A DNA stretch of 64,000 nucleotides from Acidobacteriota bacterium (GTDB lineage: Bacteria > Acidobacteriota > UBA6911 > RPQK01 > JAJDTT01): positions 2,432,001-2,496,000 of the forward strand of contig CBDCJH010000002.1 of assembly GCA_965217775.1 (NCBI GenBank), given 5' to 3'. Positions 8,258 through 59,045 of the stretch are shown here, piece by piece. Numbering within the stretch: the stretch's first letter is position 1; each line of letters begins with the position of its first letter. Below the pieces are notes generated by a model. That model saw only the letters and a list, made by a program, of their open reading frames with translations, was not told where the DNA came from and did no database searches. Made by a program: the position numbers and the translations under genes.

Positions 8258-8282
8258 CGGCTTCCCGGCTACCGGCCTATAT

Positions 8283-8440
8283 CAGCCCGTGGCAAAAGTC
8301 GTCACGGCATTCGACCGTCCCTGCATCCCGGCGGACTGCGTTGCGATTCGGGCACATACTCCCGGTATGCACCCGAATCGCGCCTTGTCCGGCGGGCGCA
8401 GGAACGGTCTCGGTGCTCGCGCGACTTTCACCACGGACTG
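8283..8440 (+). mobile_element. 158-bp palindromic MITE, copy 1 (TSD ATAT)
   Basis: Imperfect TIRs CAGCCCGTGGCAAAAGTCG...CGACTTTCACCACGGACTG, ATAT on both sides; six further copies in the window. Confidence 0.92.
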
Positions 8441-8516
8441 ATATGAGTTTTGAAGACACCTCCCATTCCGTTGATAATGAGCGTCACGTAAACCATTTCG
8501 TCGCAGGAGGTCGGGT

Positions 8517-10745
8517 TTGAGAATTCTTGGAGTCGTTTCCCTGGCTTGGATCACCATACACCCGGCCTTGGCCGCGGACTGGCCTTACTGGCGCGGTCCG
8601 ATTCAGAACGGCGCCGCCCTGGAGGAAGCCGCCGTCACCTCCTGGGATCAGGGTGGAGAGGGTCTTCTCTGGAAGTTCGATGAGGGAGGGCGGACCACGC
8701 CCATCATCATGGGCGGCCGACTCTTCGCCATCCTGCCGGTGGGGGAAGGGCCTGAGCGGGGGGAGCGGATCGTGGCGCTCGACGCCCTCACCGGCCGCAA
8801 GCTGTGGGAGAAACGGTTCAACGTCTTCCATACCGACATCGTGGAGAACCGCGTGGGATGGACCGCCCTGGTTGGAGACCCCGAATCGGGCCGGATCTAT
8901 GCCCACGCCACCGGGGGAGAGTTCTTCTGCCTCAGCCGTGACGGCGACGAGGTCTGGAAGGTCTCCATGACCGAGGAGCTGGGCCGAATCAGCGGCTACG
9001 GAGGGCGTCTGCACACCCCGATTCTGGACGAAGACCGGGTCGTAGTGAGCTATCTCAATTCGAGTTGGGGGAATCTGGCTCGGCCTCTCCATCGATATGT
9101 GGCCTTCCACAAGGGCGGCGGAGCCATCCAGTGGTGGGCGGCGCCGGGAGGGCAACCCTTGGATACCACCTATTCCACCCCGGTAGCGGCAGTGATGGGC
9201 GGCCGGCGGATGCTGGTGGCCGCGACGGCCGACGGAAACGCTTATGGAATGCTGGCTCGCAACGGCGAAAAGAGATGGACGTTCCGCCTCAGCAAACGGG
9301 GGCTCAACGCTTCCGTCGTGGTGGACGGGGACCGGGCGTACCTGTCTCACAGCGAAGAGAACCTGCACACCTCCAGGATGGGAAGCATCGTCTGCATCGA
9401 CGGAACCCGGACGGGGGACATCACGGAGAGCGGTGTGGTCTGGCGCCATGACGGTTACACCTTCGGGTATGCCTCGCCCGCCATCGCCAACGGCCGGCTC
9501 TATGCCGTGGACAACAGCGCCAATCTCTACTGCATGGACGCCGCCAGCGGCGACATCCACTGGGAATACAACATGGGCCGAGTGGGCAAGGGATCGCCGG
9601 TGGTGACCAGCGACGGCGTGATCTACGTGGGCGAACAGAACGGCATCTTCCACATTCTCCGCGACGAGGGCGATCGTTGCGTGTCCCTGGACAAGGAGGT
9701 GTTCGAGCGTCCCGACGGCACCGTGGACGAGATTTTCGGCTCTCCGGCCGTCGTCAACGGACGCGTCTATTTCATGAGCCGCTACGGCATCTACTGCCTC
9801 GGAAAGGCCGACCAACAGGTCCAGGCGCAGGAGATGGCTCCGGCTCCAGCCGAGACGGCACGTCCCGAACCCGGGTCCAAAGGAAGCCTCCGGGTGGTTC
9901 CGGCGGAAGCGACGCTGAGACCCGGACAGCAGATCCAACTAAGGGCGCTTCGATTCGACTCGGTGGGATCGACTCCCTCCCCGGCCGGCGTCGAGTGGTC
10001 GGCAAGCGGCGTCTCGGGAACAATCGGCGCGGACGGGAATTTCAGCGCCGGCAAGGAGCAGGCCTTCTCGGCGGGTCTCGTGACCGCCAAGAGCTCCAGT
10101 GGTCTGAGCGCCGCTGCTCGGATTCGGATCGCTCCTGATCTTCCGATCCACGAGGATTTCGAGTCGCTGGCCGTCGGCTCCGTCCCGCCGGGCTGGGTGG
10201 GCGTGGCCTCCAAGACGCAAGTCGTCGAGGCGGAAGGCAAGGTGCTCAAGAAGCTGGCCTCCAAGACGCGTCCTTCCCCGCCCTTCATGAGGCTTCGGGC
10301 CTATGCCACTCCCCCCATCCCGGGAGGGTACACGGTGGAAGCGGACCTGATGGGAAAGCTGGCCCGCAAACGCTTCAAGCCGGACATGGGGCTGATCAAC
10401 AGCCGCTACCGATTCGTCATGATGGGGATGAGGAAGAGGCTGCGGATCGAGACCTGGTCGCCGCTGCCCCGCCTGCGGCACGACGTTTCCTTCCCCTGGG
10501 AACCGGACGTCTGGTATCGAGCCAAGTTCTCGGTGTTGCTGGAGGATGGACAGGCCCGGGTGCGAGCCAAGGTCTGGCCACGGGAAGAACCGGAGCCCGA
10601 GGTCTGGAACACAGAGGTGCTGGATCCACATCCGAACCGTGACGGCAGCGCCGGACTCTACGGCTACTCCATCGGAACCACGTCCAAGAGCGACGGTCCC
10701 GAGATACTCTTCGACAACTTCAAGGTGGTGAAGAATGATGACTAG
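8517..10745 (+). CDS. PQQ-like beta-propeller protein with C-terminal beta-sandwich domain
   Basis: Signal peptide, 'DWPYWRGP', repeated 'LDALTGRKLW' / 'MDAASGDIHW' blades. Confidence 0.85.
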   Translation: MRILGVVSLAWITIHPALAADWPYWRGPIQNGAALEEAAVTSWDQGGEGLLWKFDEGGRTTPIIMGGRLFAILPVGEGPERGERIVALDALTGRKLWEKRFNVFHTDIVENRVGWTALVGDPESGRIYAHATGGEFFCLSRDGDEVWKVSMTEELGRISGYGGRLHTPILDEDRVVVSYLNSSWGNLARPLHRYVAFHKGGGAIQWWAAPGGQPLDTTYSTPVAAVMGGRRMLVAATADGNAYGMLARNGEKRWTFRLSKRGLNASVVVDGDRAYLSHSEENLHTSRMGSIVCIDGTRTGDITESGVVWRHDGYTFGYASPAIANGRLYAVDNSANLYCMDAASGDIHWEYNMGRVGKGSPVVTSDGVIYVGEQNGIFHILRDEGDRCVSLDKEVFERPDGTVDEIFGSPAVVNGRVYFMSRYGIYCLGKADQQVQAQEMAPAPAETARPEPGSKGSLRVVPAEATLRPGQQIQLRALRFDSVGSTPSPAGVEWSASGVSGTIGADGNFSAGKEQAFSAGLVTAKSSSGLSAAARIRIAPDLPIHEDFESLAVGSVPPGWVGVASKTQVVEAEGKVLKKLASKTRPSPPFMRLRAYATPPIPGGYTVEADLMGKLARKRFKPDMGLINSRYRFVMMGMRKRLRIETWSPLPRLRHDVSFPWEPDVWYRAKFSVLLEDGQARVRAKVWPREEPEPEVWNTEVLDPHPNRDGSAGLYGYSIGTTSKSDGPEILFDNFKVVKNDD

Positions 10746-12201
10746 CAGTCCAGCCAGGATCGTCCGCGTTCTGTCCATCCTGCTGGCGGCGGCAATTCTT
10801 GCCGCGCCGGGTCAGCCTCAGGCCCACGCGGGAGACTGGAAGATGTGGGGCGGGACTCCGGACCGGAACATGGTTTCGGATGAGAAGGGGATGCCTCATC
10901 GATGGGATGTCTCCAGCGGCGAGAACATCCGTTGGAAGGCGCCGTTGGGGTCCCAGACCTATGGCAATCCCGTGATCTCCGACGGGAAAATTTTCATCGG
11001 CACCAACAACAACGCCCATCACCGGCCCGGAATCACGGGCGACAAGGGGGTGATCGTCTGCCTGGAGGAGACCACCGGAAAGGTGCTGTGGCAAGCCACC
11101 CACGACAAGCTCCCCACGGGGCGGGTCAACGACTGGCCGGAACAGGGGATCTGTTCCTCTCCCTTCGTGGACGGGGACCGGATCTACTACGTCAGCAACC
11201 GGGCCGAATTGGTCTGCGCCGACGTGGAGGGGTTTCTGGACGGGGAGAACGACGGTCCCTTCCAGGACGAGAAATACCGGGAGAAAGAGGACGCGGACAT
11301 CGTCTGGGTATACGACATGATCGAGGAGCTGGGCGTGTTCCCGCACAACCTGGCCACCTCCTCCCCGGTGGGAGCCGGCGACCTGATCTTCCTGCTTACC
11401 TCCAACGGCGTGGACGAGGGTCACCTGGATCTTCCCATGCCGGACGCGCCCGCGTTCATCGCCGTGGACAAGAATACGGGCGAGTTGGCATGGGAGCGGA
11501 GCGACCCGGGTGAGAACACCCTGCACGGACAATGGTCCTCACCCACCTACGGGCTGGTCAAGGGCCGGCCCCAAGTCATTTTTGCCGGGGGTGACGGTTG
11601 GGCTTACGCCTACGAGCCCCAGGGTGGAGAGTTGATCTGGAAGTTCGACCTCAATCCCAAGGTCTCCGAGTGGAAGCTGGGCGGACGCGGCACCCGCAAC
11701 AACATCATCTCCACGCCGGTTCTCTATGAGGACAAGGTGCTGCTCAGCGTGGGTCAGGACCCGGAACATGGCGAGGGTCCCGGTCACCTCTTTTCCATCG
11801 ACGCGACCCAGACCGGCGACATCACCGAGAAGGCGCGGATCTGGCACGTGGGCGGGGAGGACTTCCGCCGCAGCATGTCCACCGTCGCCATTCAGGACGG
11901 TTTACTCTACGCGGCGGATCTGACCGGGTTTCTCTACTGCCTGGATCTCGCCACCGGAAAACGGCACTGGAGATACGACATGCTGGCCGCGGTCTGGGGG
12001 TCTCCCTATCTGGTGGACGGCAAGGTCTACCTGGGAGACGAGGACGGCGACGTGGCGGTGCTGGAGCACGGCACCACGATGAAGGAGCTGGCCGTCAACG
12101 AGATGGGAGATTCCGTCTACACGACTGCCGTGGCGACCAACGGCGTGCTCTACATCACCAACCGCAATACCCTGTTCGCAGTTGCCGACACGGCGAAGTA
12201 G
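10735..12201 (+). CDS. PQQ-like beta-propeller protein
   Basis: DWKMWGGTPDRN, WKAPLGSQTYGNP, LDLATGKRHW. Confidence 0.88.
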   Translation: MMTSSPARIVRVLSILLAAAILAAPGQPQAHAGDWKMWGGTPDRNMVSDEKGMPHRWDVSSGENIRWKAPLGSQTYGNPVISDGKIFIGTNNNAHHRPGITGDKGVIVCLEETTGKVLWQATHDKLPTGRVNDWPEQGICSSPFVDGDRIYYVSNRAELVCADVEGFLDGENDGPFQDEKYREKEDADIVWVYDMIEELGVFPHNLATSSPVGAGDLIFLLTSNGVDEGHLDLPMPDAPAFIAVDKNTGELAWERSDPGENTLHGQWSSPTYGLVKGRPQVIFAGGDGWAYAYEPQGGELIWKFDLNPKVSEWKLGGRGTRNNIISTPVLYEDKVLLSVGQDPEHGEGPGHLFSIDATQTGDITEKARIWHVGGEDFRRSMSTVAIQDGLLYAADLTGFLYCLDLATGKRHWRYDMLAAVWGSPYLVDGKVYLGDEDGDVAVLEHGTTMKELAVNEMGDSVYTTAVATNGVLYITNRNTLFAVADTAK

Positions 12202-12206
12202 AGAAA

Positions 12207-12363
12207 GGAGCGGCGATTTCTAATCGCCAAGGAGCGGCGGTTTCCTAGCCGCCGAACAGGAGCGGCGGTTTCTAGCCGCCGAACAGGAGCGGCGGTTTCT
12301 AGCCGCCGAACTCCGGAGTGACAATTTAGTGCCCAAGAATGGGCGACTGGAAATCGCCCCTCC
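12207..12363. repeat. REP-like tandem palindromes (GGAGCGGCGGTTTCTAGCCGCCGAACA x ~4 plus an inverted unit)
   Basis: ~27-bp hairpin units right after the stop at 12201, with no unique spacers. Confidence 0.85.
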
Positions 12364-12372
12364 ACCCCTACG

Positions 12373-12406
12373 AAAAAGGGCCGGCACTCAGTGCCGGCCC
12401 TTTTTT
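12373..12406. terminator. Bidirectional rho-independent terminator
   Basis: AAAAAGGGCCGGCACT-C-AGTGCCGGCCCTTTTTT between convergent genes. Confidence 0.85.
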
Positions 12407-12428
12407 CATCCACCTTTGGTGACGTGAA

Positions 12429-15400
12429 TCAGAAGTGGATCGAGAGATGCAACTGGATGAACCGGGGACGTGACGTGGAGCCGAACCGGCCGAATCCCGC
12501 CGCGTTTCCGGTGTCGGTGTTCAGGCCGCCCCAGATGTGGCGGTTGAACACGTTGAACATATCGACTCCCAAACGAACGCTCACGTCCTCGTTGACCTGA
12601 GTGTCCTTCTGGAGCGTCGCGTTCTCGTTGAAATAGCTGCACTCGCGTTCCTTGGGCAAGGTTCTGACGTTCCCCAAAGTCCAGGGAGCGGCATTCATGA
12701 ACGCGTTGACGTTCAGGAATCGCCCGCCGGGACTGTATTCCCCGCAGATGGTGTTGGTCTTGATCTGCGAGTTCAGACGCAGGACCGGCCAGATGGCTCC
12801 GAAGCCTCCCGGATACCTGACCCGGCTGGTAACGCTGATCGGCTGTCCCGAGAAGTAGTTGTGCTGAAAGCCGAGCGTCCAACCGCTGAGAAAATACCTG
12901 GTGAAAAGATTCCCACCGTTGAAAAAACGTTTTCCCGGCCCGAACGGCAGTTCATACATCCAACTCAGAGAGAGGTTCTGGGGGCGATCTTCCTGGTAAA
13001 CAAATCGGACACCCCGCTGCGAGGTGTGCTGGGCCCTTGTGAACCCATGCCCCTGCTGGGAGAAGCCGACATCGCCGATGGCCTTGGAGATCGTATGGTT
13101 GAGCATGAAGCTCAAACCGTGTCCATACCGCTTTTGCAACGACAGGACCAAGGCATGGTAGGTCAGGTTGTTCACGGGCGCAGCCCGCTGCTGGATGTCC
13201 AGCATGTGCGGGAATGGTCTGAGCGCCTGGGCGACCGGTCCCGAGAATCCTGGATAAGGAGCAGTGATCCCGGCGGCCTCAGCCTGTGGTGAACCGATCT
13301 GGGCCTGCAGAAGGCTCCCCAAACTCAAGTTTCCGACACTGAGCTGGTTTATCCGCAACGCGTCGTTGCTGGGCAGATTGTGCGAGAACTTGCCGTGGTA
13401 GTTGGCCCGAATGGCCAGCCCACCGCCCAGGTCCCGCTCCAACCCGGCGTTGAGAGTCAAGGTGCGGCCCGCCTTGAAGTCGTCCCGGTTAAGATACTGT
13501 ACCGCCTGACCGTTGGCGAAGTCCGGCTCCAGAACGGGAAGATTCGGGATGGGGTCCGGCCACCCGTTGTCCCAGTTGAAAGCCGGTGTCAGACCGCCGT
13601 CCAAACTCCTGACGGAAGGATCCAGCGTCCATCCCAAGAAGGGCGTGTTGAAGCCGCTGGTCATGGCGCCGAAGAGCGGAAAGTACATGTAGGCGCCGCT
13701 GGCCCGGATGACCGTGTTGTCATCTGGTGAATACGCGAATCCCAAACGGGGGCCCCACTGGCTCCAGAGGGTGTCCGCGACCCGCTTGAATCCGTTTCTT
13801 CCCGGACCGTCGCCCCAGAACCAGAGCGCCCCCGGCAGTCCCCCCGCTCCGGGGTTGGGTATCGTGGGGTTGAAGGCTCCGATCCGGTCGTAGGTCTCGC
13901 CCAAAGGAACGAAAACATCGTTCCGGAGACCATAGTTGATGGTCAACTTTTGGGTGGCGCGCCACGAGTCCTGGAAGTAGATGCCCCAGGCCCCGCCGTT
14001 GTGACGAAAGTCGCGTTGACTCCAGACGAATCCCGAGTCTACCTCGCCCAGCAACTTGCTGGCGAAACCGAACCCGGTGTTCGCGTTACCCGGCAAACCG
14101 GTTTCCAGGGCCGAGAAACTGAACGATCCCTGATCGAAGAGGGCCAGGTTCTGCTTGGAGACAGAAAGCAGGTAGGCGGCGCCCACCTTGAAATTGTGCG
14201 AGCCCTTGACCCAGGTCACGTCCATGTTGGCCGGGATGGTCTGGCTGGGGTCGATGAGTTTTTGGAAGATGGGCCCGTAGGCGCTCTGGCCCTGGACGCC
14301 GACTTGGGGGGCGATGGGTCCCGGCACTCCCCTGATGCCGACTTCCGCACCCGTATTGTCGTTGGCCAGACCCTGGGTGCCGATGACCCGGGGCGTCCGC
14401 GTGACGCCGGTCCGAACGTTGAATAGGACGTTGGGCCGGATCGTGTAGTGGTAATTGAAGCGATAGCGGTACTGAACTTGGTCGTTCTTGTGAAGACTGG
14501 AGATGGACTCGTCAAAGACCGGGGCGTAGTTTGACCGGGATTCCTGCAACGACTGCTCCCATCCGACCGTGAGCCGGTGGTCGCCCGCCTCGTCGAGCTG
14601 ATGATCGACCTTCAGGTAGAAAGAGGACTTGTCGACCGGTGTGGAGGTCAGGCCCCCGACCCAGTTGTTGGTCACACCCGGCCGATTGGGCAGCCCGATC
14701 CGCGAAATCAGGTTCTTGGTGACGGTGCTGAATCGATCCGCAGGAATCATGTTGTTGGGGAACGGGTCCCGAATGAACCCGCCCTGCCCGTCCGAGCGAG
14801 TGGTCATGGGGTCGTAGATGGCGCCCTGGTGGATCGGCCGGCCCAGAGAGTCGGTCCCGATCTGGGGGCCCAGAATCTCGCTGAAGTCGCCGCTGCGCAT
14901 GGCCGCGGTGGGCACGGTCCGCACCGCGTCTCCCGGAGCGGTCCGCAGCTTGTAGCCGTCGAACCCGCCGAAGAAGAACGTTCGGTTCTTCCAGATCGGG
15001 CCTCCCAGCACGAATCCGTAGTCGTTCTGCCGGGTCACGCTCTTGCTCGGGGCCAGCCAGGGCCGGGCGTCGAGAATGTCGTTCCGGAAATACCAGAAGA
15101 CGTCGCCGTGCAAGTCGTTGGTGCCCGACTTGAAGATCAGGGTGATCGCCACGCCGCTGTCCCAACCATGCTCCGCATTCGTGTTGGTGTCGAGCCGGAA
15201 CTCCTGCACCAACTCGGGAATCGGCCCCGTGTCGTCCCGGGCATTCTGGTGGGTGGAGCTGCCCGCCCGGACACCATCGATGGTGTAGCTGGGGGAAGCA
15301 TTGGGCGTGCCATGAATGAAAGCCCTGCTCATGGCGCCGTTTTCGTTGGTGTTATTGGGGTTGTAGTTCACGCCCGGCATGGTGCGCAAAAACGAGAGCG

Positions 15401-45713: not shown

Positions 45714-45832
45714 CACGGGACACGGACATCCTGAAAACTCTAAAGGGTGGTCCGGACTGAACTACAGGCTTGCCCAACGTGTGTACAACCGCCGAGCCAT
45801 CGACTCCGTCGATTCCCGTATTCACCCTTTAG

Positions 45833-45990
45833 CAGTCCGTGGTGAAAGTCCCGCGAGCACCGAGACCGTTCCTGCGCCCGCCGGACAAGGCGCGATTCGG
45901 GAGCATACCGGGAGTATGTGATCGAATCGCAACGCAGTCCGCCGGGATGCAGGGACGGTCGGATGCCGTGGCGACTTTTGCCACGGGCTG
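45833..45990 (-). mobile_element. 158-bp MITE, copy 2 (TSD TTAG)
   Basis: TTAG|CAGTCCGTGG...CCACGGGCTG|TTAG. Confidence 0.92.
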
Positions 45991-46022
45991 TTAGGCCGCA
46001 CCTACCCTCCACGCCAAGCCGG

Positions 46023-47171: not shown

Positions 47172-48482
47172 TCATGGCTTTTTCTGCAGGAGGCCCTCAG
47201 CAGCGCGCTGCCGCTCTTGGCTCCCCTCCTCTTCCAATCTCTGAAACCGTTCCAGTGAGACGCGAGCATCTTCCATCATCCCCAGCTTCCGGTAGACCTG
47301 GGCCAACTGGTAGTGGGGTTGTGGATCCCCGGGACCCAGTGCGATGGCCCGGTGGAGGGCGCCTTCGGCGGCCCGCAGTCGGCCCTTGGCCTCGTAGGCC
47401 GAAGCCAGAGCCACGTGGGCGTCCGGGAGCCTGACATCCACCTGCAACGCCCTCTCCAGGTGACGAATCGCCTGGTCGAACTGCTGCCGCGAGTTTTTGA
47501 TGATTCCCAATTCCAGGTTGACGATAGGGTGATGCGGATCGATCTTCAGCTCCTTCCGCAGCGCCGGCTCAGCCTTGTCGTATTGCCCCAGACCGAAGTA
47601 GATGTCCCCCAGGGCGAAGTTGACTCCGGGCGCGTCCGGGTTCAGGGCGACCGCTTGCTCGTACGCCTGCGCCGCCTCGTTCAGGTGTCCCCGGGCGGCG
47701 AAAAACTCGGCTCTGAGCTGATGGGACCGGAAGGAATTGGGTTCGACCTCGTCGATCCGGGCGATGGTCCGGTTGAAGCCGTCATCGCCGCCTTTCGTCA
47801 GATAAGCCTGGGCCAGCGTCTGCAAGGCTTCCAACTCCCGAGGATGGCTGCGGGTCAACGCCTCCAGATGTTCGATGCTCTCATCCACCCGTCCCAGCGC
47901 CAGGAAGCAGACGCCCAGATAGACCTGAGCCTTGACGTTCTTCGGGTCACGGGAGATCGCCTCCTGAAGGGCCCCTGCGGCCTCCGGGTACCGGTGGAGG
48001 CCGAAATAGGCGCGCCCCAGATAAAAATGGGCGTCGGGGAGATCGGGGTCGAGGGTCAGGGCACTGTGGATCGCATCGACAGCCGGGCCCAACCTTCCCT
48101 GGTATTGGTAGACCAGCCCCAACCGGACCATGATCTCAACAGTCCGTGGTGAAAGTCGCGCGAGCACCGAGACCGTTCCTGCGCCCGCCGGACAAGGCGC
48201 GATGAGGGAGCATACCGGGAGTATGTGACCGAGTCGCAACGCAGTCCGCCGGGATGCAGGGACGGTCGAATGCCGTGACGACTTTTGCCACGGGCTGTCA
48301 ACCCGTCCCGGCTGTAGTTCCAGGATACTGGTGTAGGACTTCTCGGCGGCTGGCCAATCGCCCCTCGCCTCCGCCTCCACGGCGGTTTGCAGTTGCCTCT
48401 GAACCGGGGTTTCCTGTCCAGCGGCCGATCCGGCCAAGGCCATCAGCGGAATCGTCGAGAGCAATAGCCAGAGACTCACCAT
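47172..48482 (-). CDS. TPR protein carrying an in-frame 54-codon MITE insertion
   Basis: Signal peptide and TPRs; the first TPR is interrupted by SPWQKSSRH...LSPRTV. Confidence 0.88.
   Translation of the reverse strand: MVSLWLLLSTIPLMALAGSAAGQETPVQRQLQTAVEAEARGDWPAAEKSYTSILELQPGRVDSPWQKSSRHSTVPASRRTALRLGHILPVCSLIAPCPAGAGTVSVLARLSPRTVEIMVRLGLVYQYQGRLGPAVDAIHSALTLDPDLPDAHFYLGRAYFGLHRYPEAAGALQEAISRDPKNVKAQVYLGVCFLALGRVDESIEHLEALTRSHPRELEALQTLAQAYLTKGGDDGFNRTIARIDEVEPNSFRSHQLRAEFFAARGHLNEAAQAYEQAVALNPDAPGVNFALGDIYFGLGQYDKAEPALRKELKIDPHHPIVNLELGIIKNSRQQFDQAIRHLERALQVDVRLPDAHVALASAYEAKGRLRAAEGALHRAIALGPGDPQPHYQLAQVYRKLGMMEDARVSLERFQRLEEEGSQERQRAAEGLLQKKP
48140..48297 (-). mobile_element. 158-bp MITE, copy 3 (TSD TCAA), inside the TPR gene
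   Basis: TCAA at 48136-48139 and 48298-48301. Confidence 0.93.
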
Positions 48483-49199: not shown

Positions 49200-49361
49200 C
49201 CGTTGACGTCGGCAACCGGGAATTTACCCAGGGTCAAGTAAACAACCTAGGAGCCTGCGCCGCAGTGCGGCAGCCCGTAGGGTTGTGTCTAGAGAAGTAC
49301 GTTTGGCCTTTGTGAGAATTCCTGATCGGCGATGCTTCTGTTCATCCGTTCCAGTGTTTGA

Positions 49362-49519
49362 CAGTCCGTGGTGAAAGTCCCGCGAGCACCGAGACCGTTC
49401 CTGCGCCCGCCGGACAAGGCGCGATTCGGGTGCATACCGGGAGTATGTGCCCGAATCGCAACGCAGTCCGCCGGGATGCAGGGACGGTCGAATGCCGTGA
49501 CGACTTTTGCCACGGGCTG
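49362..49519 (-). mobile_element. 158-bp MITE, copy 4 (TSD TTGA)
   Basis: TTGA|CAGTCC...GGGCTG|TTGA. Confidence 0.92.
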
Positions 49520-49580
49520 TTGAAGCCGCGCAAACGTATTGCGCCGCCACCTAACCAGTTCGCCAAGACAATTTCAGTTT

Positions 49581-51226: not shown

Positions 51227-51261
51227 TCCCGGAACCGGCGGACGCACATAGTGACGCCTAA

Positions 51262-51420
51262 CAGTCCGTGGTGAAAGTCCCGCGAGCACCGAGACCGGTC
51301 CTGCGCCCGCCGGACAAGGCACAACGGAGGGAGTATACCGGGAGGATGTGACCGAGTCGCAACGCAGTCCGCCGGGATGCAGGGACGGTCGAATGCCGCG
51401 ACGACTTTTGCCACGGGCTG
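51262..51420 (-). mobile_element. MITE copy 5 (159 bp, diverged; flanks CTAA/TTAA)
   Basis: Same TIRs; central hairpin altered; imperfect TSD. Confidence 0.9.
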
Positions 51421-51449
51421 TTAAGAACGAAACCCGCCCCATCGTTGGA

Positions 51450-52817: not shown

Positions 52818-53034
52818 ACTTTTCCTACATAGGGTAATGTTTCGAATGCATTCAGTACAATCGGTGTCCAGGACCCATTCGCTTGTTTTCGGCGCTGGCG
52901 TTCAAGGCCAAGCCAGAGTCCGAAGCACGGACCCGGACGATTGAATTTATCGCCGCTCAATCTCCGAAAGCGTCACCCCAAAGGGGGTGCTGGCCCACAT
53001 CGAGTCTGGCTGGACCGACCCGGGCTCGGGTGAA

Positions 53035-53167
53035 TGGCGCACCGGCTGGAGCAGGGGTTCATCTTCCTGGGCTACGGGAGCGACTACAGCCTTCTGCTCG
53101 GCGGGGCCAAGTCCGCCCTGGAAACCTTTCGGGCCTCCCAATCCGGGAAGGCGGAGAGCGGCTGACA
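53035..53167 (+). repeat. 133-bp direct repeat copy 2 (displaced aldolase 3' end including stop)
   Basis: Encodes AHRLEQGFIFLGYGSDYSLLLGGAKSALETFRASQSGKAESG*. Confidence 0.92.
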
Positions 53168-53181
53168 CCGCGCCAAGCGAT

Positions 53182-54189
53182 TCAACTCCCTTCCTGCCGC
53201 CCCCAGCGGTCGTAGAGGAAGTCGGCCAGGGCGCTGAAGATGAGCAGGGCGCCCACGGCCACCTGCTGCACAAAGACCGAGATGCCCAGGATGTTCAGGG
53301 CATTGCGGACGATCTGAAAGAAGATCACGCCCAACAGCGTCCCCGGCATGGAGCCCCGTCCCCCGTACAGGCTCGTCCCCCCGATGACCACCGCCGCGAT
53401 GACGTCCAGCTCGGCCCCGGTCCCCGCCAGGGTGAGGGCCGAGTTCAGACGGGCCGCCAGCAGAATCCCCGCAAAGGAAGCCAGTCCGCCGCTCAGGGCG
53501 TAGAGCAGGAACTGGTGGCGCTTGACGCGGACCCCCAGGCGGCGGGCCGTTTCGGGATCGTTGCCGATGGCGAAGGTGTAGCGCCCGAAGCGGGTCTTCA
53601 CCAGCACCAGGTGGCCGATCAGGTAGACCGCCGCGGTGATCAACACCAGCACGGGGATCGGACCGATGCGCCCCTTGCCCAGAAACAGGAAGCTCTCCGG
53701 GAGGCCGACGATGGAGTTGCCGCTGGTCAGGAACATGACGGTGCCCCGGGCGACGTTGAGCATCCCCAGGGTCATGATGAAGGCTGGGATTCTGCCGTAG
53801 GCCACGGCGACGCCGTTGACCGCACCGGCGGCGGTCCCCACCAGCAATCCACCCACGATAGCGGCCGGGACCGGGATCCCGGAGACCAGGAGTCCGGCCG
53901 TTCCCATGCTCCCCAGGGCCAGGATCGAGCCCACCGAGAGGTCGATCCCGGCGGCAATGATGACGAAGGTCATACCGGCCGCGACGATGGCGTTGATGGA
54001 GAGCTGTTCCAGGATGTTGAGGAAATTTCGAGTGGTGAGAAAGACGGGAGAGATCATGGACACGACGGCCACCAGAATCAGGGTGGCCGCCAGCAGCGCC
54101 TTGAGCCGGGTGAGCTTCAGCAAGGCGGGATGCAGACCCCGGCTCGTCAAGCGGGAGACCAAAACTTGAAGCGAACGATTCCAATCCAC
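53182..54189 (-). CDS. Sugar ABC permease (RbsC-like)
   Basis: GIDLSVGS, FIMTLG, TRFGR..FAIG, ELDVIAAVVIGGTSL.GG.GS. Confidence 0.92.
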   Translation of the reverse strand: MDWNRSLQVLVSRLTSRGLHPALLKLTRLKALLAATLILVAVVSMISPVFLTTRNFLNILEQLSINAIVAAGMTFVIIAAGIDLSVGSILALGSMGTAGLLVSGIPVPAAIVGGLLVGTAAGAVNGVAVAYGRIPAFIMTLGMLNVARGTVMFLTSGNSIVGLPESFLFLGKGRIGPIPVLVLITAAVYLIGHLVLVKTRFGRYTFAIGNDPETARRLGVRVKRHQFLLYALSGGLASFAGILLAARLNSALTLAGTGAELDVIAAVVIGGTSLYGGRGSMPGTLLGVIFFQIVRNALNILGISVFVQQVAVGALLIFSALADFLYDRWGRQEGS

Positions 54190-54196
54190 GGGCCGG

Positions 54197-55003
54197 TCAA
54201 CTCCTGGACGGAAGCGGGCCCTTCAGCATCAGGTCGACGACCTCGTCCTGGTTCGTGGAACGGGTCCTCAGGTCGGCCACCGTCGCCCCCTTCCTCATGA
54301 CCACGATCCGGTCGGCGATGGAGAAGATGTCGTCCAACTCGTGACCGATCACGATCAGGGAGACTCCCTCGTCCCGAAACCTCCGGATCAGGTCCAGCGT
54401 CTTTCGGGTCTCCGCGACCCCCAGGGCCGCCGTCGGTTCGTCCATCAGGATCAGCTTGGCGCGGGCCAGTAGGGCACGGGCCAGGGCTACCGCCTGGCGC
54501 TGTCCCCCCGAAAGGTAACGCACCCGGGTTGAGGCGCGGAAGTCGTAGCCGAGCCTGCGGATCAACTCTTCCGCCTTGGCCTTCATGGACTTCTCCGCCA
54601 GCCAGCGGAGCCCGGGGACGCCCCGGCGCCACTCCCGTCCCATGAAGATGTTGGCGGTCACGTCCAGTTCGCCCAGGAGCGCCAGGTCCTGGTACACCGT
54701 CTCGATCCCATGGTGACGGGCCTCGGCGGGGCTTCCCGTTCGAAGCGGCCGGCCTTCCATGAGGAACCGTCCCCCATCGGGTCGATCGACGCCGGAGATG
54801 AGGTGGATCAGTGTCGATTTTCCGGCCCCGTTGCCGCCCACCAGGCCCACGATCTCAGCCCGGCCGACGGTGAGATCGGCGCCGTCGACCGCCGTCAGCG
54901 CGCCGAATCGTTTGGTGATACCCACCGCCTCCAGGAGAGCTGCGCGGCCGGCCCCGCCAGCGGGTCCGGTCGCGGTTCCGGAGGCGCTTTCCGGCTCGCT
55001 CAC
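54197..55003 (-). CDS. Sugar ABC ATP-binding protein (single domain)
   Basis: GGNGAGKSTL, GIETVYQDLAL, LSGGQRQ, MDEPTAALG; GTG start overlaps the SBP stop. Confidence 0.9.
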   Translation of the reverse strand: MSEPESASGTATGPAGGAGRAALLEAVGITKRFGALTAVDGADLTVGRAEIVGLVGGNGAGKSTLIHLISGVDRPDGGRFLMEGRPLRTGSPAEARHHGIETVYQDLALLGELDVTANIFMGREWRRGVPGLRWLAEKSMKAKAEELIRRLGYDFRASTRVRYLSGGQRQAVALARALLARAKLILMDEPTAALGVAETRKTLDLIRRFRDEGVSLIVIGHELDDIFSIADRIVVMRKGATVADLRTRSTNQDEVVDLMLKGPLPSRS

Positions 55004-56130
55004 AGGAGCGGCTCCCCGCTCTCGATCTGCCGGATGAACTCGTCCACGTTCTCCCTCGTCACCAGGACCACGCCGGTGTCGGTGAAGGGTGTAGATTCGA
55101 TGCCGCGGCGGAATTTGACCAGACTGTCGACGCCGGAATAGCCCATCTTGGCGGGAAACTGGGCGACCATGGCGTCCAGCTCGCCACGCTTGACCGCCTC
55201 CAGGTCCCCCAACCCCGCTTTGCCGATGGAACCGCGGCCCACTACCATCAGATCCTCGCCCAGGTTCTTTCCGAAGGCCCCGGCCGCCTGGGTGGCGCAG
55301 AGAACCGCGGGACCACCGAAGATGTAGAGACCGGCCAGATCGGGATGCGCCGTCAGCAGATCGGTGGTGGCGTTGAAGGACTGGTCGCAGAAGGGAACTC
55401 CCAGCGGAGACCCCACCATTTCCAGGTCGGGATACTTGCGCAGGCCTTCCACGAAACCGTTCATGATTTCCCGGCAGGGCAGAATGCTGGGCGGACAGGC
55501 GATGACGCCGACCTTCCCTCGATCCGAAAGGCGGTCGGCCAGCCGGTCGGCGGCCACGGTGCCGCAAAGGACATTGTCGGTGGCGGCGAAAGTGACGATA
55601 TCCCCCTCGGCGATCCCGGTGTCGATGACGGTGATGGGAATCCCGGCCTGGTTCACCTTCGACACGGCAGGCGACAGGGCGTTGGAATCGCAGGGCGCCA
55701 GCACGATGCCGTCCACTTCCAACTGAATCATGTTCTCCACGATCTGGACCTGATCCACGACATGAGTCTCGCTCTTGGCGGCGTGCAACAGCAGTTCCAC
55801 CCCCAGCTCCTCTGCCGCCCGTTGGGCGCCGTCGATGGCGTCCAGCCAGAAGGGATCGGTGTAGGACTTGGAGATGAAGGCGATCCTCAGCCGTCCGTCG
55901 CGGGAGGGATCGGGAACCGGCGCCGCGCAGGCCCAGAGCAGCAGCAGCGGGAGCAGGATCGCTAGCAGTCCGTGGGAAAAGTCCCATGAGCACCGAGACC
56001 GTTCCTGCGCCCGCCGGACAAGGCGCGATGAGGGAGCGTATGTGACCGAGTCGTAACGCAGTCCGCCGGGATGCAGGGACGGTCGAATGCCGTGACGACT
56101 TTTTCCACGGGCTGCTTGGCATCGGGTCAT
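55000..56130 (-). CDS. Sugar ABC substrate-binding lipoprotein (RbsB-like) with in-frame MITE in the signal peptide
   Basis: DPFW, VDGIVLAP, AGIPITVID, ATDN, VAQFP..MG, DTG; lipobox LWAC. Confidence 0.88.
   Translation of the reverse strand: MTRCQAARGKSRHGIRPSLHPGGLRYDSVTYAPSSRLVRRAQERSRCSWDFSHGLLAILLPLLLLWACAAPVPDPSRDGRLRIAFISKSYTDPFWLDAIDGAQRAAEELGVELLLHAAKSETHVVDQVQIVENMIQLEVDGIVLAPCDSNALSPAVSKVNQAGIPITVIDTGIAEGDIVTFAATDNVLCGTVAADRLADRLSDRGKVGVIACPPSILPCREIMNGFVEGLRKYPDLEMVGSPLGVPFCDQSFNATTDLLTAHPDLAGLYIFGGPAVLCATQAAGAFGKNLGEDLMVVGRGSIGKAGLGDLEAVKRGELDAMVAQFPAKMGYSGVDSLVKFRRGIESTPFTDTGVVLVTRENVDEFIRQIESGEPLL
55966..56114 (-). mobile_element. MITE copy 6 (149 bp, 9-bp internal deletion; flanks CTAG/CTTG)
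   Basis: Lacks ATACCGGGA of the central hairpin; 149+4=153 bp=51 codons. Confidence 0.9.
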
Positions 56131-56338
56131 GACGAGCCGGACACTAACACGTTCCGGGAGCCCCTTGCAGGATTCCCCGGACGGCGATACGGCTTGCCTC
56201 ACGGCATCGGATTCAATACCTTAAGTCGAGTGCCGGAGGGCTTGGCCACGTGGGCCAGGCCGACCGGTCTGGGAGTCGAATCCATTGATTGGAACGCCCA
56301 CTCGTTCCACAACGAGCGGCGCGGAAGAGGAAAGCAGC

Positions 56339-57088
56339 ATGCCCGGAAAACTGGACGGCAGGGTGGCGATCATCACCGGCGGCGGTAGCGGCTTGGGCGC
56401 GTCCACGGCCAGACTCTTCGCGGCCGAAGGGGCCAAAGTGGTCATCGCCGACGTCAACGTCGATGCGGGAACAGGGGTGGTCCGATCCCTCCAGGATGAC
56501 GGGACCGAAGCCCTCTTCGTCAAGACCGATGTCTCGTCGGCGGCCGACGCCCGCAACCTGATGGAGGAGACCGTCGCCCGGTTCGGCCGGATCGACATCC
56601 TCGTCAACAACGCCGGCGTCCAAGTGGAAAAGGCGGTGCCCGAAACCACCGAGGAGGATTGGGACTTCGTCCTGGGCGTCAATCTGAAGGGGCCGTTCCT
56701 CTGCTCCAAATACGCCATCCGGCAGATGCGCAAGCAGAAATCGGGGAACATCGTCTGCATCTCGTCCCTCTCCGGCGTGGTTTCCAACGGAGAACAGGCT
56801 TCCTACAACGCCTCCAAACACGGCCTCATCGGCCTGGCCAAGTGCATGGCCCACGACCACGCCCTGGAGGGCATCCGGGTGAACACGGTCTGTCCCGGCT
56901 CCATGAACACACCCATGCTGGACGGGGTGCCGGAGGAACACCTGGCGCCCTACCGCAAGAGCAACCTGCTGGAGAGGTTCGCCGATCCGGGAGAGGTGGC
57001 CAACTGCATTCTCTTTCTGGTGAGCGACGATGCCTCCTTCGTCACCGGCTCGGTTCTGGTGGCCGACGGGGGCTATACCACCAAGTGA
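56339..57088 (+). CDS. SDR family oxidoreductase, paralog of 38541..39353
   Basis: TGGGSGLG, NNAG, YNASKHGLIGL, CPGSMNTPM. Confidence 0.93.
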   Translation: MPGKLDGRVAIITGGGSGLGASTARLFAAEGAKVVIADVNVDAGTGVVRSLQDDGTEALFVKTDVSSAADARNLMEETVARFGRIDILVNNAGVQVEKAVPETTEEDWDFVLGVNLKGPFLCSKYAIRQMRKQKSGNIVCISSLSGVVSNGEQASYNASKHGLIGLAKCMAHDHALEGIRVNTVCPGSMNTPMLDGVPEEHLAPYRKSNLLERFADPGEVANCILFLVSDDASFVTGSVLVADGGYTTK

Positions 57089-57152
57089 TGCCGGACCGTC
57101 CGGCTGCCGAGGCCGGCGCCCCGGAGATACGAACCGAAAGGAGTCAAATCGG

Positions 57153-57662
57153 ATGTACCTGAAGAAGATCGACCACATCGCCGTCATGGTGAGCGACATC
57201 GAGAAATCCCTGCACTTCTATCGCGATCTGCTGGGCCTGGAGGTGGTGACTCCGGAAGAGCACATCGCGGGTCCGGTGGCGGAGATGGTGGACAAACCGG
57301 GCTGCCACATGCGCGAGTACCGCATGCGGGCTCCGGAGGGCGTCCAGGGCTACGACCGGAACGACGAAGGGGTGGCGTTGACCTTCGACATCATCCAGTG
57401 GTTGAAACCGGAGAGCCCCCAGGCGAGATACGAGGTCCACCACGTGCCCAGCGCGCACATCTGTTTCGGAGTGGAGAACCTGCCCGCGATCTACGAACGA
57501 TTGAAGGCGGAGGGCGTCGAGTTCATCTCGCCTCCGGTCCGCTTCTCGGGTGAGGGGGACTGGCACGTGCTCTTCTTCTACGATCCCGACGGGAACCTCC
57601 TGGAGCTGAACGAGACCGGCACCGGAGGCCAGATCGTGCACGATTTCGAGTGGAGCGAATAA
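57153..57662 (+). CDS. VOC/glyoxalase family protein, paralog of 39442..39933
   Basis: DHIAVMVSDIEKS, HHVPSAHICF, FFYDPDGNLLELN; AAGGAG RBS. Confidence 0.9.
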   Translation: MYLKKIDHIAVMVSDIEKSLHFYRDLLGLEVVTPEEHIAGPVAEMVDKPGCHMREYRMRAPEGVQGYDRNDEGVALTFDIIQWLKPESPQARYEVHHVPSAHICFGVENLPAIYERLKAEGVEFISPPVRFSGEGDWHVLFFYDPDGNLLELNETGTGGQIVHDFEWSE

Positions 57663-57918
57663 CGTCGGGGCAACCCTCGGGGTTGCCCTTCCTTTACGTG
57701 CGCCGTGGACTTCTCCTGACCCACCGCGACCGGACACACCCACCGGCCATGGCGTGTCGATATCGCGGTGACCGTTGCGGTTGCCCGGGTCCGGCAGGCG
57801 GGCAGAATCAATCCGGCCCCATGAGTTCGTCGCCGGGCGGCGAGTCTGAACGACTCGAGCTCCACGATTGGAGTGATTACCCGGGTTCATCGACTTGGCG
57901 CGGCGTGGCGGGGACGGA

Positions 57919-58800
57919 TCATTCGACCCTCAGGAGGCGGAAACCCAGGTAGTGGTAGCGATTGCCGGGGACGACGCCGGCGCGATACGCCGACCGGCTG
58001 CCGAGAGCGTCGTGGCTCCAACCGCCCCCTCGACGGACCCGAAGGGAGCCCGTCGCAGGGCCCTTGGGATCTGTGACACTGCCTCCCGGGTACTCCCCGT
58101 AGCGGTCCTCTACCCACTCCCACGCGTTCCCCAGCATGTCGTGCAGCCCGAAATCATTCGCAGCCTTCTCCCCCACCGGATGGGTCCCGCACCAAGTTGA
58201 CGGGTACTGCTTTTCCTTCCAGTCCGAACAATCGACCCCGCCCTCGTACCTCACCCCGCTGTTGCCGCCGTACCACGCGATCCTGTCCAACATCGGCACG
58301 TTGTTGACCCCCGCCAAATCCAAATCTCCTGCCGGCGTGTCCGTTCGAGTTCCCGCCCGCGCCGCGTACTCCCACTCGGCCTCCGTCGGCAACCGGTACC
58401 TCGCACCTTCCCCCATGCCGTTCAGCTTCCTGACGAACTGCTGCACGTCGTCCCACGAAACACTCTCCACCGGGCAATCTCGACCGCAGTTCTTGAAATC
58501 CGAGGGATTCGATCCCATCACCGCCTCCCATTGACCCTGAGTCACCTCGTATTTCCCCAGATAAAACGCCCGGCTGATCTTCACCCGAGTCACCGGTCTC
58601 TCGTCATCGTCCGCCAACCCGCTCTCCGACCCCATCCGGAACTCGCCGGCCGGTACCCGCACGAACTCCATTCCGAGGCTGTTGCTCCACTTTGCCGGCG
58701 TTGAGGCTTCTTCCTGAGCCGCCAGGCCCCCAGCAAGGAGGAGGACAGTCCACCCGGCCGCGGTCCCACGCCGACACCATGAAAACAAGTTTCCGATCAT
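57919..58800 (-). CDS. Formylglycine-generating enzyme (SUMF1/FGE-sulfatase) domain protein
   Basis: GEFRMGS, KYEVTQGQW, YRLPTEAEWEYAARAG, GLHDMLGNAWEWV, RGGGW, GFRL; GGAGG RBS. Confidence 0.92.
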   Translation of the reverse strand: MIGNLFSWCRRGTAAGWTVLLLAGGLAAQEEASTPAKWSNSLGMEFVRVPAGEFRMGSESGLADDDERPVTRVKISRAFYLGKYEVTQGQWEAVMGSNPSDFKNCGRDCPVESVSWDDVQQFVRKLNGMGEGARYRLPTEAEWEYAARAGTRTDTPAGDLDLAGVNNVPMLDRIAWYGGNSGVRYEGGVDCSDWKEKQYPSTWCGTHPVGEKAANDFGLHDMLGNAWEWVEDRYGEYPGGSVTDPKGPATGSLRVRRGGGWSHDALGSRSAYRAGVVPGNRYHYLGFRLLRVE

Positions 58801-58846
58801 GTTTCCTCCGCTCGGCTCCGGTTGGTATTCGTTGGCCTGCTATTAA

Positions 58847-59004
58847 CAGCCCGTGGCAAAAGTCATCACGGCATTCGACCGTCCCTGCATCCCGGCGGAC
58901 GGCGTTGCGATTCGGGCACATACTCCCGGTATGCACCCGAATCGCGCCTTGTCCGGCGGGCGCAGGAACGGTCTCGGTGCTCGCGGGACTTTCACCACGG
59001 ACTG
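58847..59004 (+). mobile_element. 158-bp MITE, copy 7 (TSD TTAA)
   Basis: TTAA|CAGCCC...GGACTG|TTAA. Confidence 0.92.
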
Positions 59005-59045
59005 TTAAATCCCAAAATCCCGGATGTCGTTTGCGCGATCCCGGT

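Follow-up and report, generated by a model that had tools for sequence, protein, structure and literature searches.

A 158-bp palindromic MITE with an IS1182/IS5-like partner in an uncultured Acidobacteriota genus

Element anatomy and copies in the window

The locus is a 64-kb stretch of DNA, referred to here as the window, which carries seven copies of a palindromic MITE (Table 1). Two of these lie in frame within genes, one encoding a TPR-repeat protein and the other a solute-binding lipoprotein; the rest are intergenic. Scanning with the 18-nt TIR pattern CAGYCCGTGGYRAAAGTC at up to two mismatches gave 14 matches, arranged as 7 inward-facing pairs. Shuffled sequence is expected to give 0.01, and 14 matches were reached in 0 of 100 shuffles. 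The pairs recover each copy listed in a preliminary description of this DNA (8283, 45833, 48140, 49362, 51262, 55966 and 58847), and the 4-bp TSDs, perfect (ATAT, TTAG, TCAA, TTGA, TTAA) or imperfect (CTAA/TTAA, CTAG/CTTG), are exactly as given there. The imperfect TIRs are also present, at 18 nt rather than the claimed 19 bp.

Mean column identity in an alignment of the seven copies was 89%. Folded as single-stranded DNA, one copy formed the single long hairpin that had been described, with an energy of -58.7 kcal/mol (z = -8.8); 0 of 200 shuffles folded as well. The master copy is 158 bp, near-perfectly palindromic throughout, and occupies 162 bp with its TSD. Five of its six frames are open, one strand being stop-free in all three, and the closed frame contains three TGA codons, not the single one previously reported. 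The size of 158 bp (162 bp with TSD) that was given for the family holds for 5 of the 7 window copies and fails for those at 51262 (159 bp) and 55966 (149 bp). Similarly, five open frames, claimed for the element as such, are found in three copies (8283, 49362 and 58847), the other four having 4, 3, 4 and 3. Note that the length of copy 51262 is frame-breaking, and that copy 55966, with a 9-bp internal deletion, spans 153 bp with its TSD, still a multiple of 3. Copy 49362 is one base off the commonest sequence in the genome and 99% identical to most copies. The window is a local hot spot, with 7 copies against a genome-wide average of 2.1 full copies in 64 kb; at least 7 are found in 13 of 779 overlapping windows across the genome.

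Table 1. Coordinates of the MITE copies, host and neighbouring genes in the window, and full copies of the partner IS elsewhere in the genome.
Feature	Coordinates	With TSD	Strand	Description
Peptidase_S15/PepX_C gene	6404-8257		+	neighbour of copy 8283
MITE copy	8283-8440	8279..8444	-	158 bp; TSD ATAT both sides; 5 open frames; intergenic
PQQ-like beta-propeller gene	8517/8568-10745		+	neighbour of copy 8283
GWxTD-domain gene	43868-45511		-	neighbour of copy 45833
MITE copy	45833-45990	45829..45994	+	158 bp; TSD TTAG; 4 open frames; intergenic
SBP_bac_3 gene	46023-46895		-	neighbour of copy 45833
TPR-repeat host gene	47172..48482		-	secreted, 436 aa; N-terminal signal-like segment; ORF continuous through copy 48140
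MITE copy	48140-48297	48136..48301	+	158 bp; TSD TCAA; 3 open frames; in frame in TPR gene
MITE copy	49362-49519	49358..49523	+	158 bp; TSD TTGA; 5 open frames; intergenic
HpcH/HpaI aldolase gene	50436-51224		+	copy 51262 begins 38 bp past its stop
MITE copy	51262-51420	51258..51424	+	159 bp; imperfect TSD CTAA/TTAA; 4 open frames; intergenic
Lipoprotein host gene	55000..56130		-	Peripla_BP_4 solute-binding; beside ABC-transporter genes; ATG at 56130; ORF open through copy 55966
MITE copy	55966-56114	55962..56118	+	149 bp; imperfect TSD CTAG/CTTG; 3 open frames; in frame in lipoprotein gene
FGE-sulfatase gene	57919-58800		-	copy 58847 lies upstream
MITE copy	58847-59004	58843..59008	-	158 bp; TSD TTAA; 5 open frames; intergenic
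Partner IS copies	C2:310455-311929, 316892-318366, 2325898-2327373			TIR CAGCCCGTGGCAAAAGTC; TSDs CTAG and TCAA

Genome copies, partner insertion sequence and relatives

The host is a free-living-type Acidobacteriota with a genome of 6.4 Mb and 62% G+C. A genome-wide search found 213 full-length copies among 267 loci, 46 of them identical. Lengths range from 143 to 162 bp, with 149 copies of exactly 158 bp; 154 have a frame-preserving length and 59 a frame-breaking one. The ends CAGTCCGTGG and CCACGGGCTG occur in 187 and 190 of the 213 copies, respectively. A perfect 4-bp TSD flanks 154 copies, and one with a single mismatch another 37; TSD lengths of 5 to 9 fit none of the 213. The commonest TSDs are TTAA (27), CTAG (19), ATAT (13) and TTGA (13). 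Five frames are open in 74 copies; on one strand, two of the frames stay open in only 54% and 41% of copies. When the master copy was shuffled, at least five open frames were obtained in 0.3% (mononucleotide), 2.4% (dinucleotide) and 5.2% (palindrome-preserving) of cases. The longest coding potential of the frames is only ~52 residues, and the element has no transposase gene of its own.

An IS5/IS1182-type transposase located outside the window had been proposed as the mobiliser, and an IS that shares the 18-nt TIRs and the 4-bp TSD length was found elsewhere in the genome. It is 1475 bp long and present as 3 full copies plus fragments. The copy at 2325898, ~105 kb upstream of the window, retains an intact transposase ORF of 452 aa, with matches to DUF772 (PF05598, E = 2e-16), DDE_Tnp_1_6 (PF13751, 26.7 bits against a cut-off of 25.1) and DDE_Tnp_1 (PF01609). 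These domains, a size of ~1.5 kb, short TIRs and a 4-bp TA-centred TSD are those of the IS1182 and IS5 families, but the transposase falls below both curated NCBIfam cut-offs: the best model, IS1182 (NF033551), scores 171.3 bits versus 270, and the next, IS5_4, 80.1 bits versus 140. Its closest annotated plasmid relatives, 47-52% identical, carry no label beyond “transposase” or “IS5 family transposase”. By its sequence, the IS is best placed on a distant or unclassified branch near IS1182/IS5.

The MITE and the IS have only their terminal 18-23 nt in common, and the MITE interior is not IS-derived. The IS family with the same TIRs also occurs in other Acidobacteriota genomes, where diverged MITE copies adjoin IS ends. 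From the shared ends, the shared TSD and this co-occurrence, we infer that the MITE is moved in trans by the IS transposase. A second insertion sequence, an RNA-guided element of the IS110 family, has four copies in the genome, all inside the apical region of the MITE, which is its sole landing site seen there.

The MITE itself was present in 8 of 8 congeners, in 0 of 6 sister-genus genomes and in 0 of 26 other genomes searched in the order. In other families of the phylum its interior is retained at 71-77% identity over the full length. Among 40 copies of such relatives from five other Acidobacteriota genomes, five frames are open in 1 and two or three in 32, and the abundant subfamilies there are 157 or 159 bp long. 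Together with the 74 of 213 copies in the present genome, this indicates that frame-neutrality arose by accident in this lineage, with host selection as the filter, and is not a family trait. Literature searches found no MITE of comparable kind described for Acidobacteriota, although one census (PMC11602168) may include the family. The element is a new sequence family of ordinary MITE type.

Insertions within genes

To place insertion points relative to genes, MITE copies were excised in silico before genes were called. Excision was needed because the poor codon score of the MITE trims gene starts; calls made without it put 180 of 213 copies in intergenic DNA and missed or nearly missed the in-frame copies of the window. 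The caller was a purpose-made one based on codon usage, not a standard annotator, and its thresholds were arbitrary (score of at least 30; “internal” meaning at least 150 nt from the 3′ end). Although 86% of the genome was called coding, 169 of the 213 insertion points fell outside predicted genes and 44 inside; 13 adjoin a stop codon. Intergenic copies are spread over tandem, divergent and convergent spacers in proportion to the DNA that each makes up. Orientation showed no bias relative to genes with a 3′ end within 100 bp (49 versus 44) or to the direction of replication (106 versus 102), and a weak one at gene 5′ ends (70 versus 45).

Among internal insertions in well-scored genes (n = 25), the ORF was kept in 19 and broken in 6, against an expectation of 49% kept (p = 0.006), computed on the element alone for random strand and phase. 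Intragenic copies are therefore not mostly gene-breaking; a gene-breaking majority would have spoken against the preliminary description. The all-open orientation was used in 19 of the 25, and near gene 3′ ends orientation was reversed (8 versus 2; Fisher p = 0.006). Internal ORF-preserving insertions make up ~9% of all copies. Each of the three frames on the open strand is used (8, 6 and 5 cases), so no single conserved peptide is donated; the other strand is used too. The MITE peptide appears in 46 public gene predictions, 13 of them with Pfam domains.

In the window, the copy at 48140 forms codons 62-115 of the TPR protein, between TPR1 and TPR2, and is read from the all-open strand. Its 54 residues are absent from the four closest orthologues (G004, G006, G007 and G008). 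An AlphaFold2 model built with 8 homologues gave a confident solenoid, with block means of 89-98 pLDDT (approximately residues 121-420), and below 50 for the insert (model residues 58-109), where low confidence is expected at an alignment gap. In four metatranscriptome runs examined over positions 46900-48700, contigs end at the MITE borders and none spans a junction; the MITE itself has a very high summed depth, drawn from many contigs and possibly from many organisms, or else from DNA. The copy at 55966 splits a lipoprotein signal peptide in frame, with the n-region (MTRC) on one side and the hydrophobic core plus lipobox (LLPLLLLWAC) on the other. G007 carries an insertion at this site too, and 7 other congeners have it empty; the insertion common to G000 and G007 leaves the ORF open in both genomes, and the 9 bp lost in G000 do not shift the frame. 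Precise empty sites in congeners, where the flanks are contiguous and the TSD occurs once, were obtained for four intragenic copies. The insert-bearing proteins are probably made.

Interpretation

Given the observed anatomy, copy number, partner IS, empty sites and copy distribution, the element is very probably a MITE of an uncultured Acidobacteriota genus that is mobilised by the IS and lies mostly between genes, with peptide donation as a by-product. The DDE transposase of the 1475-bp IS would cut and paste it in trans, by way of the same ends and a 4-bp NTAN TSD. Insertion would be recent and ongoing, with most surviving copies intergenic. Copies often sit at TAA or TAG stops, presumably because these are TA-containing targets in a 62% G+C genome. 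Within a gene, an insertion in the all-open orientation would add 54 residues through its 162 bp and leave the protein untruncated. Host selection would purge breaking insertions and retain those at tolerant sites: between repeats, between domains, in a signal peptide or near the C-terminus. On this account, the donation of peptides is a by-product rather than the element's purpose.

That purpose goes with the peptide-donating reading of the preliminary description, likened there to Rickettsia palindromic elements (RPEs), on which length and open frames would be selected on the element itself, allowing it to enter coding DNA, and the donation of 54 residues would be central. RPEs are described as palindromic, ~150 bp long and inserted in frame in genes, where they add ~50 residues at tolerant positions, with nearly half of the first-described copies in ORFs (PMC10969869). 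Compared by description, the likeness consists of the 19 internal ORF-preserving cases, four with empty sites. The master copy with its five open frames in 162 bp (reached by 2.4% of dinucleotide and 0.3% of mononucleotide shuffles), the ORF kept in 19 of 25 internal copies, the in-frame 9-bp deletion in an insertion open in both G000 and G007, and the 46 gene predictions, 13 with Pfam domains, are what such a donor would leave. The part of the claim that stands is that ORF-keeping insertions occur, as in 2 of the 7 window copies. Against selection on the element itself are the 169 of 213 copies outside genes, the 74 of 213 with five frames, the 59 of frame-breaking length, the two frames open in just 54% and 41%, the 5.2% of palindrome-preserving shuffles with at least five frames, the relatives (1 of 40 with five frames, 32 of 40 with two or three, subfamilies of 157 or 159 bp) and the use of three frames of the open strand with no single peptide. 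Unlike RPEs as described, the present element has 44 of 213 copies inside genes and ~9% internal and ORF-preserving, is a MITE with clear TIRs, a 4-bp TSD and an identified partner IS, and resides in a 6.4-Mb, 62% G+C genome of free-living type; it donates no single conserved peptide. We consider a designed peptide donor very unlikely. Spread of a REP/BIME-like extragenic palindrome by a tyrosine (RAYT) transposase or by recombination would also account for a palindromic, abundant and mostly intergenic repeat. REPs, however, are given as 20-40 bp with GTAG or CGTC heads and no TSD (PMC3733652), whereas this element has 158 bp, 18-nt TIRs, CAG ends that exactly match those of a DDE IS from this genome, and a perfect 4-bp TSD in 154 of 213 copies. 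The TSDs and the precise empty sites in congeners contradict this reading, which we regard as improbable in the extreme.

A further reading concerns the interior: a structure of the “+” strand, most likely RNA, would have its own function (in transcript processing or stability, transposase regulation or mobilisation), and MITE ends would spread it as a domesticated or dual-use element. In an alignment of six lineages, 96.4% of cells are paired and both sides have changed in 23 of the 54 stem pairs, a level that none of 500 shuffles attained; slid controls yielded 4-6 pairs. Blocks opposed as internal loops do not vary. In the master copy, the stem contains 8 non-Watson-Crick pairs, which are all G-T, and never A-C, when read on one strand. 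As RNA the two strands fold at -114.2 versus -96.4 kcal/mol, and the better-folding strand is the same one in 211 of the 213 copies here and in 39 of 40 from five other genomes. Such compensatory changes and strand asymmetry are not obviously needed by a purely selfish element moving by cut and paste of double-stranded DNA, and the interior is unrelated to the IS. On the other side, concerted evolution of the palindrome arms by hairpin-templated repair could mimic compensatory change, 3 of the 8 G-T pairs fall within the TIRs, where they reflect differences between the left and right ends of the IS itself, and part of the asymmetry may have been inherited, given that the lineages are related. 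No copy matched Rfam at E ≤ 1 over positions 45000-60000, no T-run of an intrinsic terminator follows the hairpin in the window sequence, and neither gene 3′ ends nor replication direction show an orientation bias, with the bias at 5′ ends weak. We therefore hold it to be possible, though on the whole unlikely, that the interior is a conserved structured single-stranded element of ~120 nt, most likely RNA of the IS transposase-sense strand, under selection across several Acidobacteriota families. If so, it could be needed for MITE propagation or could act on host or transposase transcripts, as a MITE-borne RNA module and not as filler between two transposase-binding ends.

For the favoured reading, a MITE mobilised by its partner IS, the nearest counterparts are the classical bacterial MITEs (Correia/NEMIS, ERIC, Coxiella QMITE1 and QMITE2, and cyanobacterial families), described as short, with TIRs and TSDs, in hundreds of copies, mostly intergenic, hairpin-forming and sometimes fused in frame to genes (PMC10969869, PMC5896051). 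All those traits are found here. QMITE2 is reported as a hot spot for IS1111, of the IS110 family (PMC10969869, PMC5896051), which resembles the placement of 4 of 4 IS110-family copies in the apical region. The present element differs in its IS1182/IS5-like partner and in an interior that is not IS-derived, covaries and is strand-asymmetric across families of the phylum.

With 46 copies identical and some insertions present in one sister species but absent from another, the MITE and its IS would form a very active pair in an uncultured, environmentally widespread phylum. RPE-style colonisation of genes in frame extends to a large, G+C-rich genome: given a stop-free strand and a length divisible by three, insertions in loops, linkers and signal peptides can survive host selection. 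Gene callers will be misled by such copies, through extended or fused ORFs and shifted starts, and short-read assemblies are broken by them. The covarying, strand-asymmetric hairpin provides a testable lead on the function of MITE interiors.

Copies of the element and its partner insertion sequence

Within the window, CAGYCCGTGGYRAAAGTC was matched 14 times at ≤2 mismatches, versus 0.01 expected from shuffles. The matches formed seven inward-facing pairs of terminal inverted repeats (TIRs), exactly at 8283, 45833, 48140, 49362, 51262, 55966 and 58847. Together with an alignment of the copies (mean column identity 89%), this bears out the seven copies of a palindromic MITE, their positions and their flanking tetranucleotides as given in the preliminary description. 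The TIRs are likewise present, at 18 nt rather than the 19 described, and the length of 158 bp does not extend to the copies at 51262 (159 bp) and 55966 (149 bp). When one copy was folded as single-stranded DNA, a single long fold was obtained (−58.7 kcal/mol, z = −8.8), in agreement with the long hairpin that had been proposed. No Rfam family matched the MITE copies.

A profile built from the seven copies was then applied to the genome (6.43 Mb, 62% G+C, two contigs), in which the window is C2:2432001-2496000. It yielded 267 non-overlapping loci, 213 of them full-length (102 on one strand and 111 on the other). After end adjustment, 149 full copies were exactly 158 bp and 46 were mutually identical. 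Target-site duplications (TSDs) of 4 bp were perfect for 154 of the 213 and had one mismatch for 37; alternative TSD lengths fit none. Targets conform to NTAN, chiefly TTAA (27), CTAG (19), ATAT (13) and TTGA (13). The mean density is 2.1 full copies per 64 kb; of 779 overlapping windows, just 13 reach seven or more, which marks the window out as a MITE hot spot. Elsewhere on C2, two copies stand in tandem 4 bp apart (2174457-2174614 and 2174619-2174777), and a ~97-bp deletion derivative that retains MITE positions 1-52 and 107-158 is present in four copies (see table).

To find a source of transposase, the MITE TIRs were sought genome-wide outside MITE copies. Three TIR pairs lay 1475 bp apart, at C2:310455, 316892 and 2325898-2327373; the former two are identical to each other and 84% identical to the third. 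The insertion sequence (IS) so defined carries CAGCCCGTGGCAAAAGTC at both ends and is flanked by duplications of CTAG or TCAA; further remnants comprise a truncated copy and fragments. The transposase frame is broken in the two identical copies. Situated ∼105 kb upstream of the window, the third has an uninterrupted frame for a 452-aa protein with DUF772, DDE_Tnp_1_6 and DDE_Tnp_1, whose top NCBIfam model is IS1182 (171 bits, under the curated cut-off of 270), with IS5 models next. The nearest of its annotated relatives on plasmids show 47-52% identity. Similarity between IS and MITE is confined to 18-23 terminal bases. With shared TIRs, 4-bp TSDs and a DDE transposase, the suggestion that an IS5/IS1182-type enzyme outside the window mobilizes the MITE is probably right. 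Members of this IS family with the same ends were also found in metagenome-assembled genomes titled Acidobacteriota, Vicinamibacterales, Binatia and Planctomycetota, and a diverged MITE copy adjoins the IS end at two loci in Vicinamibacterales.

A second IS, of the IS110 family, encodes a 317-aa transposase (NCBIfam “IS110 family RNA-guided transposase”, 217 bits). Its 1508-bp core is 99.7-99.9% identical among copies, of which the genome holds only four. Every one of them is inserted into a different MITE copy, always at one junction in its apical region, and each of these MITE copies has its own 4-bp TSD. The MITE seems to be a dedicated landing site for this IS, which resembles the situation in Coxiella, where IS1111, likewise of the IS110 family, targets MITE palindromes (QMITE2), as described in PMC5896051.

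Coordinates of features in the window and on C2, the contig of the studied genome (G000) that contains it
Feature	Sequence	Positions	Strand	Length
66-bp repeat array	window	36877-37602		
Aldolase-tail duplication	window	51094-51231 and 53035-53172		
CarboxypepD_reg + OMP_b-brl_4 paralogues	window	12429-15860 and 16286-19756	−	
Two MITE copies of the AlbA_2/HATPase_c_4 gene	G000:C2	6054958-6055115 and 6055724-6055881		
IS110-family IS copies	G000:C2	1656568-1658241, 3134809-3136482, 5760147-5761892, 6039542-6041287		
Sub-MITE copies	G000:C2	985933-986029, 3579131-3579227, 4889634-4889730, 5007959-5008055		~97 bp

Positions relative to genes

Genes were called with our own codon-usage caller. 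In an initial comparison, 180 of 213 MITE copies were intergenic, versus 8% of random 158-bp intervals; this count underestimates intragenic copies because the caller trimmed gene starts at the MITE, as is evident in the window. Every full copy and one TSD were therefore excised in silico and genes were re-called (4784 genes, 86% coding), which placed 169 insertion points outside genes and 44 inside. Depletion of the 213 copies from coding DNA is extreme. The TSD adjoins a stop codon in 13 of the 169 extragenic copies. Intergenic copies fall between tandem (97), divergent (44) and convergent (28) genes in proportion to spacer DNA (57%, 27% and 16%), and their orientation showed no convincing bias relative to neighboring genes; nor did MITE orientation relative to the direction of replication.

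Insertions were considered internal if they were at least 150 nt from the 3′ end of a gene scoring ≥30. Among 25 such cases the open reading frame (ORF) was kept in 19 and broken in six, among the latter a gene for TnpB and one of 1033 codons that is cut at codon 779. Internal insertions thus do not mostly break genes; had they done so, it would have counted against the preliminary description by its own criterion. If strand and phase were random, copies in their current mix would be expected to keep the ORF in 49% of cases (p = 0.006). Of the 25 insertions, 19 lie in the orientation whose three frames lack stops in 91-97% of copies. Close to the 3′ end (within 150 nt) the preference is reversed, with eight stop-bearing and two open insertions (Fisher p = 0.006). 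Host selection against truncating insertions would produce such a pattern.

Individual genes were compared with those of congeners, among them G001, G002 and G004-G008. The insert forms residues 203-256, between domains, of a predicted AlbA_2/HATPase_c_4/HTH protein whose orthologue in G006 is uninterrupted, the DNA there having a single TCAA at the empty site; this gene bears two MITE copies, directly after the start codon and at codon 203. In a predicted 1094-aa OMP_b-brl_4 outer-membrane barrel it forms residues 981-1034, and in G001, G002 and G005 the flanks are contiguous with a 4-bp overlap. The copy at 48140 lies inside a TPR gene (47172-48482), downstream of a signal-like N-terminus and the first TPR. 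Empty sites were found in the DNA of G004 and G006, and the proteins of G004, G006, G007 and G008 read ...LQPER.DIMVRLGL... without the 54 residues. AlphaFold2 predicted a confident solenoid with pLDDT <50 for insert residues 58-109, as expected for a gapped alignment; the support from this model is weak. In a Peripla_BP_4 gene, the copy at 55966 separates MTRC from LLPLLLLWAC within the encoded lipoprotein signal peptide. G000 and G007 carry this insertion, with an open frame in both and an in-frame 9-bp deletion in G000; the other seven congeners have an empty site. Among independent public gene predictions, 46 proteins of 109 candidates contain the MITE peptide of one frame, 13 of them with Pfam domains. 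RNA-library contigs end at MITE borders. In four metatranscriptome libraries, summed contig depth over 48120-48302 was ∼960-16800 on the MITE versus 2-7 on the flanking gene, a height that could come from numerous contigs, from other organisms or from carried-over DNA and is therefore not evidence of transcription.

Six copies fall within 45.8-59 kb of the window, which looks like a plastic region. Genes for a PIN-domain toxin and for a protein with a Phd/YefM antitoxin domain lie between them (49829-50269 and 51789-52265). The last ∼135 bp of an HpcH/HpaI aldolase gene, including the stop codon, are duplicated 1.9 kb downstream at 94% identity, the downstream copy being a relic gene fragment in this MITE-dense region. 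The window also contains two tandem paralogous genes (∼1140-1156 aa, DNA 69-80% identical) for CarboxypepD_reg and OMP_b-brl_4 barrels, the protein type of the gene with an in-frame MITE at C2:1101265. ORF 36861-38537, whose only Pfam match is a weak apolipoprotein-like helical repeat, includes a tandem array of at least eight 66-bp (22-codon) repeats that are 62-71% alike. At 59653-59727 on the plus strand, Rfam's SymR antitoxin RNA is matched weakly (30 bits versus a gathering score of 61, E = 0.025), probably by chance.

Conservation and strand asymmetry of the hairpin

In an alignment of 24 sequences from six lineages the hairpin is conserved whole, with 96.4% of cells paired. Both sides have changed in 23 of 54 stem pairs, a value reached by none of 500 shuffles, and slid controls gave 4-6 pairs; several facing internal-loop blocks are invariant. 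In the master copy (the commonest MITE sequence in the genome) each of the eight stem pairs that are not Watson-Crick is G-T when read on one strand, and the RNA fold of that strand is −114.2 kcal/mol versus −96.4 kcal/mol for the other. The G-T strand likewise folds more stably in 211 of the 213 full copies of this genome and in 39 of 40 copies from other genomes. As counted from the alignment table, G-U variants occur at ∼21 pair columns versus A-C at six. Three of the eight G-T pairs are within the TIRs and mirror differences between the left and right ends of the partner IS. Some of the covariation and asymmetry may stem from common descent and from concerted evolution between the arms of the palindrome. 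A functional single-stranded form, whether RNA or DNA, is an alternative explanation that we consider unlikely.

Frame-neutrality of the element

The preliminary description had five of six reading frames open. This is true of three of the seven window copies; the remaining four have 4, 3, 4 and 3. The master copy has five, its closed frame holding three TGA codons. In shuffles of the master copy, the comparison that had been proposed as a check, at least five open frames were reached by 2.4% with dinucleotides kept, 0.3% with mononucleotides kept and 5.2% with the palindrome preserved. Among the 213 full copies, 1, 21, 66, 51 and 74 have one to five open frames, respectively; on one strand, two of the frames lack stops in just 54% and 41% of copies. 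A frame-preserving length is found in 154.

Relatives proved decisive on whether frame-neutrality is a designed property. The MITE was found in all eight other species of the genus (89-99% identity among the matches listed) and in none of six sister-genus genomes or 26 further genomes from the order. A diverged MITE, 71-77% identical over the full 158 bp, was present in 13 of the 295 genomes that fall outside the genus in a sample of 301 from the phylum. Forty diverged copies from five such genomes have 5, 4, 3 or 2 open frames in 1, 7, 18 and 14 cases, and 27 are 158 bp long; abundant subfamilies are 159 bp (in the Acidobacteriota genome G110) and 157 bp (in G282). Neither freedom from stops nor length modulo three is therefore a trait of the family.

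A review (PMC10969869) treats in-frame MITE insertions, of which Rickettsia palindromic elements (RPEs) are the extreme case. The proposed analogy with RPEs holds as a mechanism, in-frame insertion into genes, for a minority of MITE copies; it fails as membership or purpose, with 169 of 213 outside genes. A literature search that took in text passages from a 2024 census (PMC11602168) returned no description of this MITE family or of a similar acidobacterial MITE. In this genus, frame-neutrality is most plausibly accidental, its effect being that insertions are tolerated at more sites.
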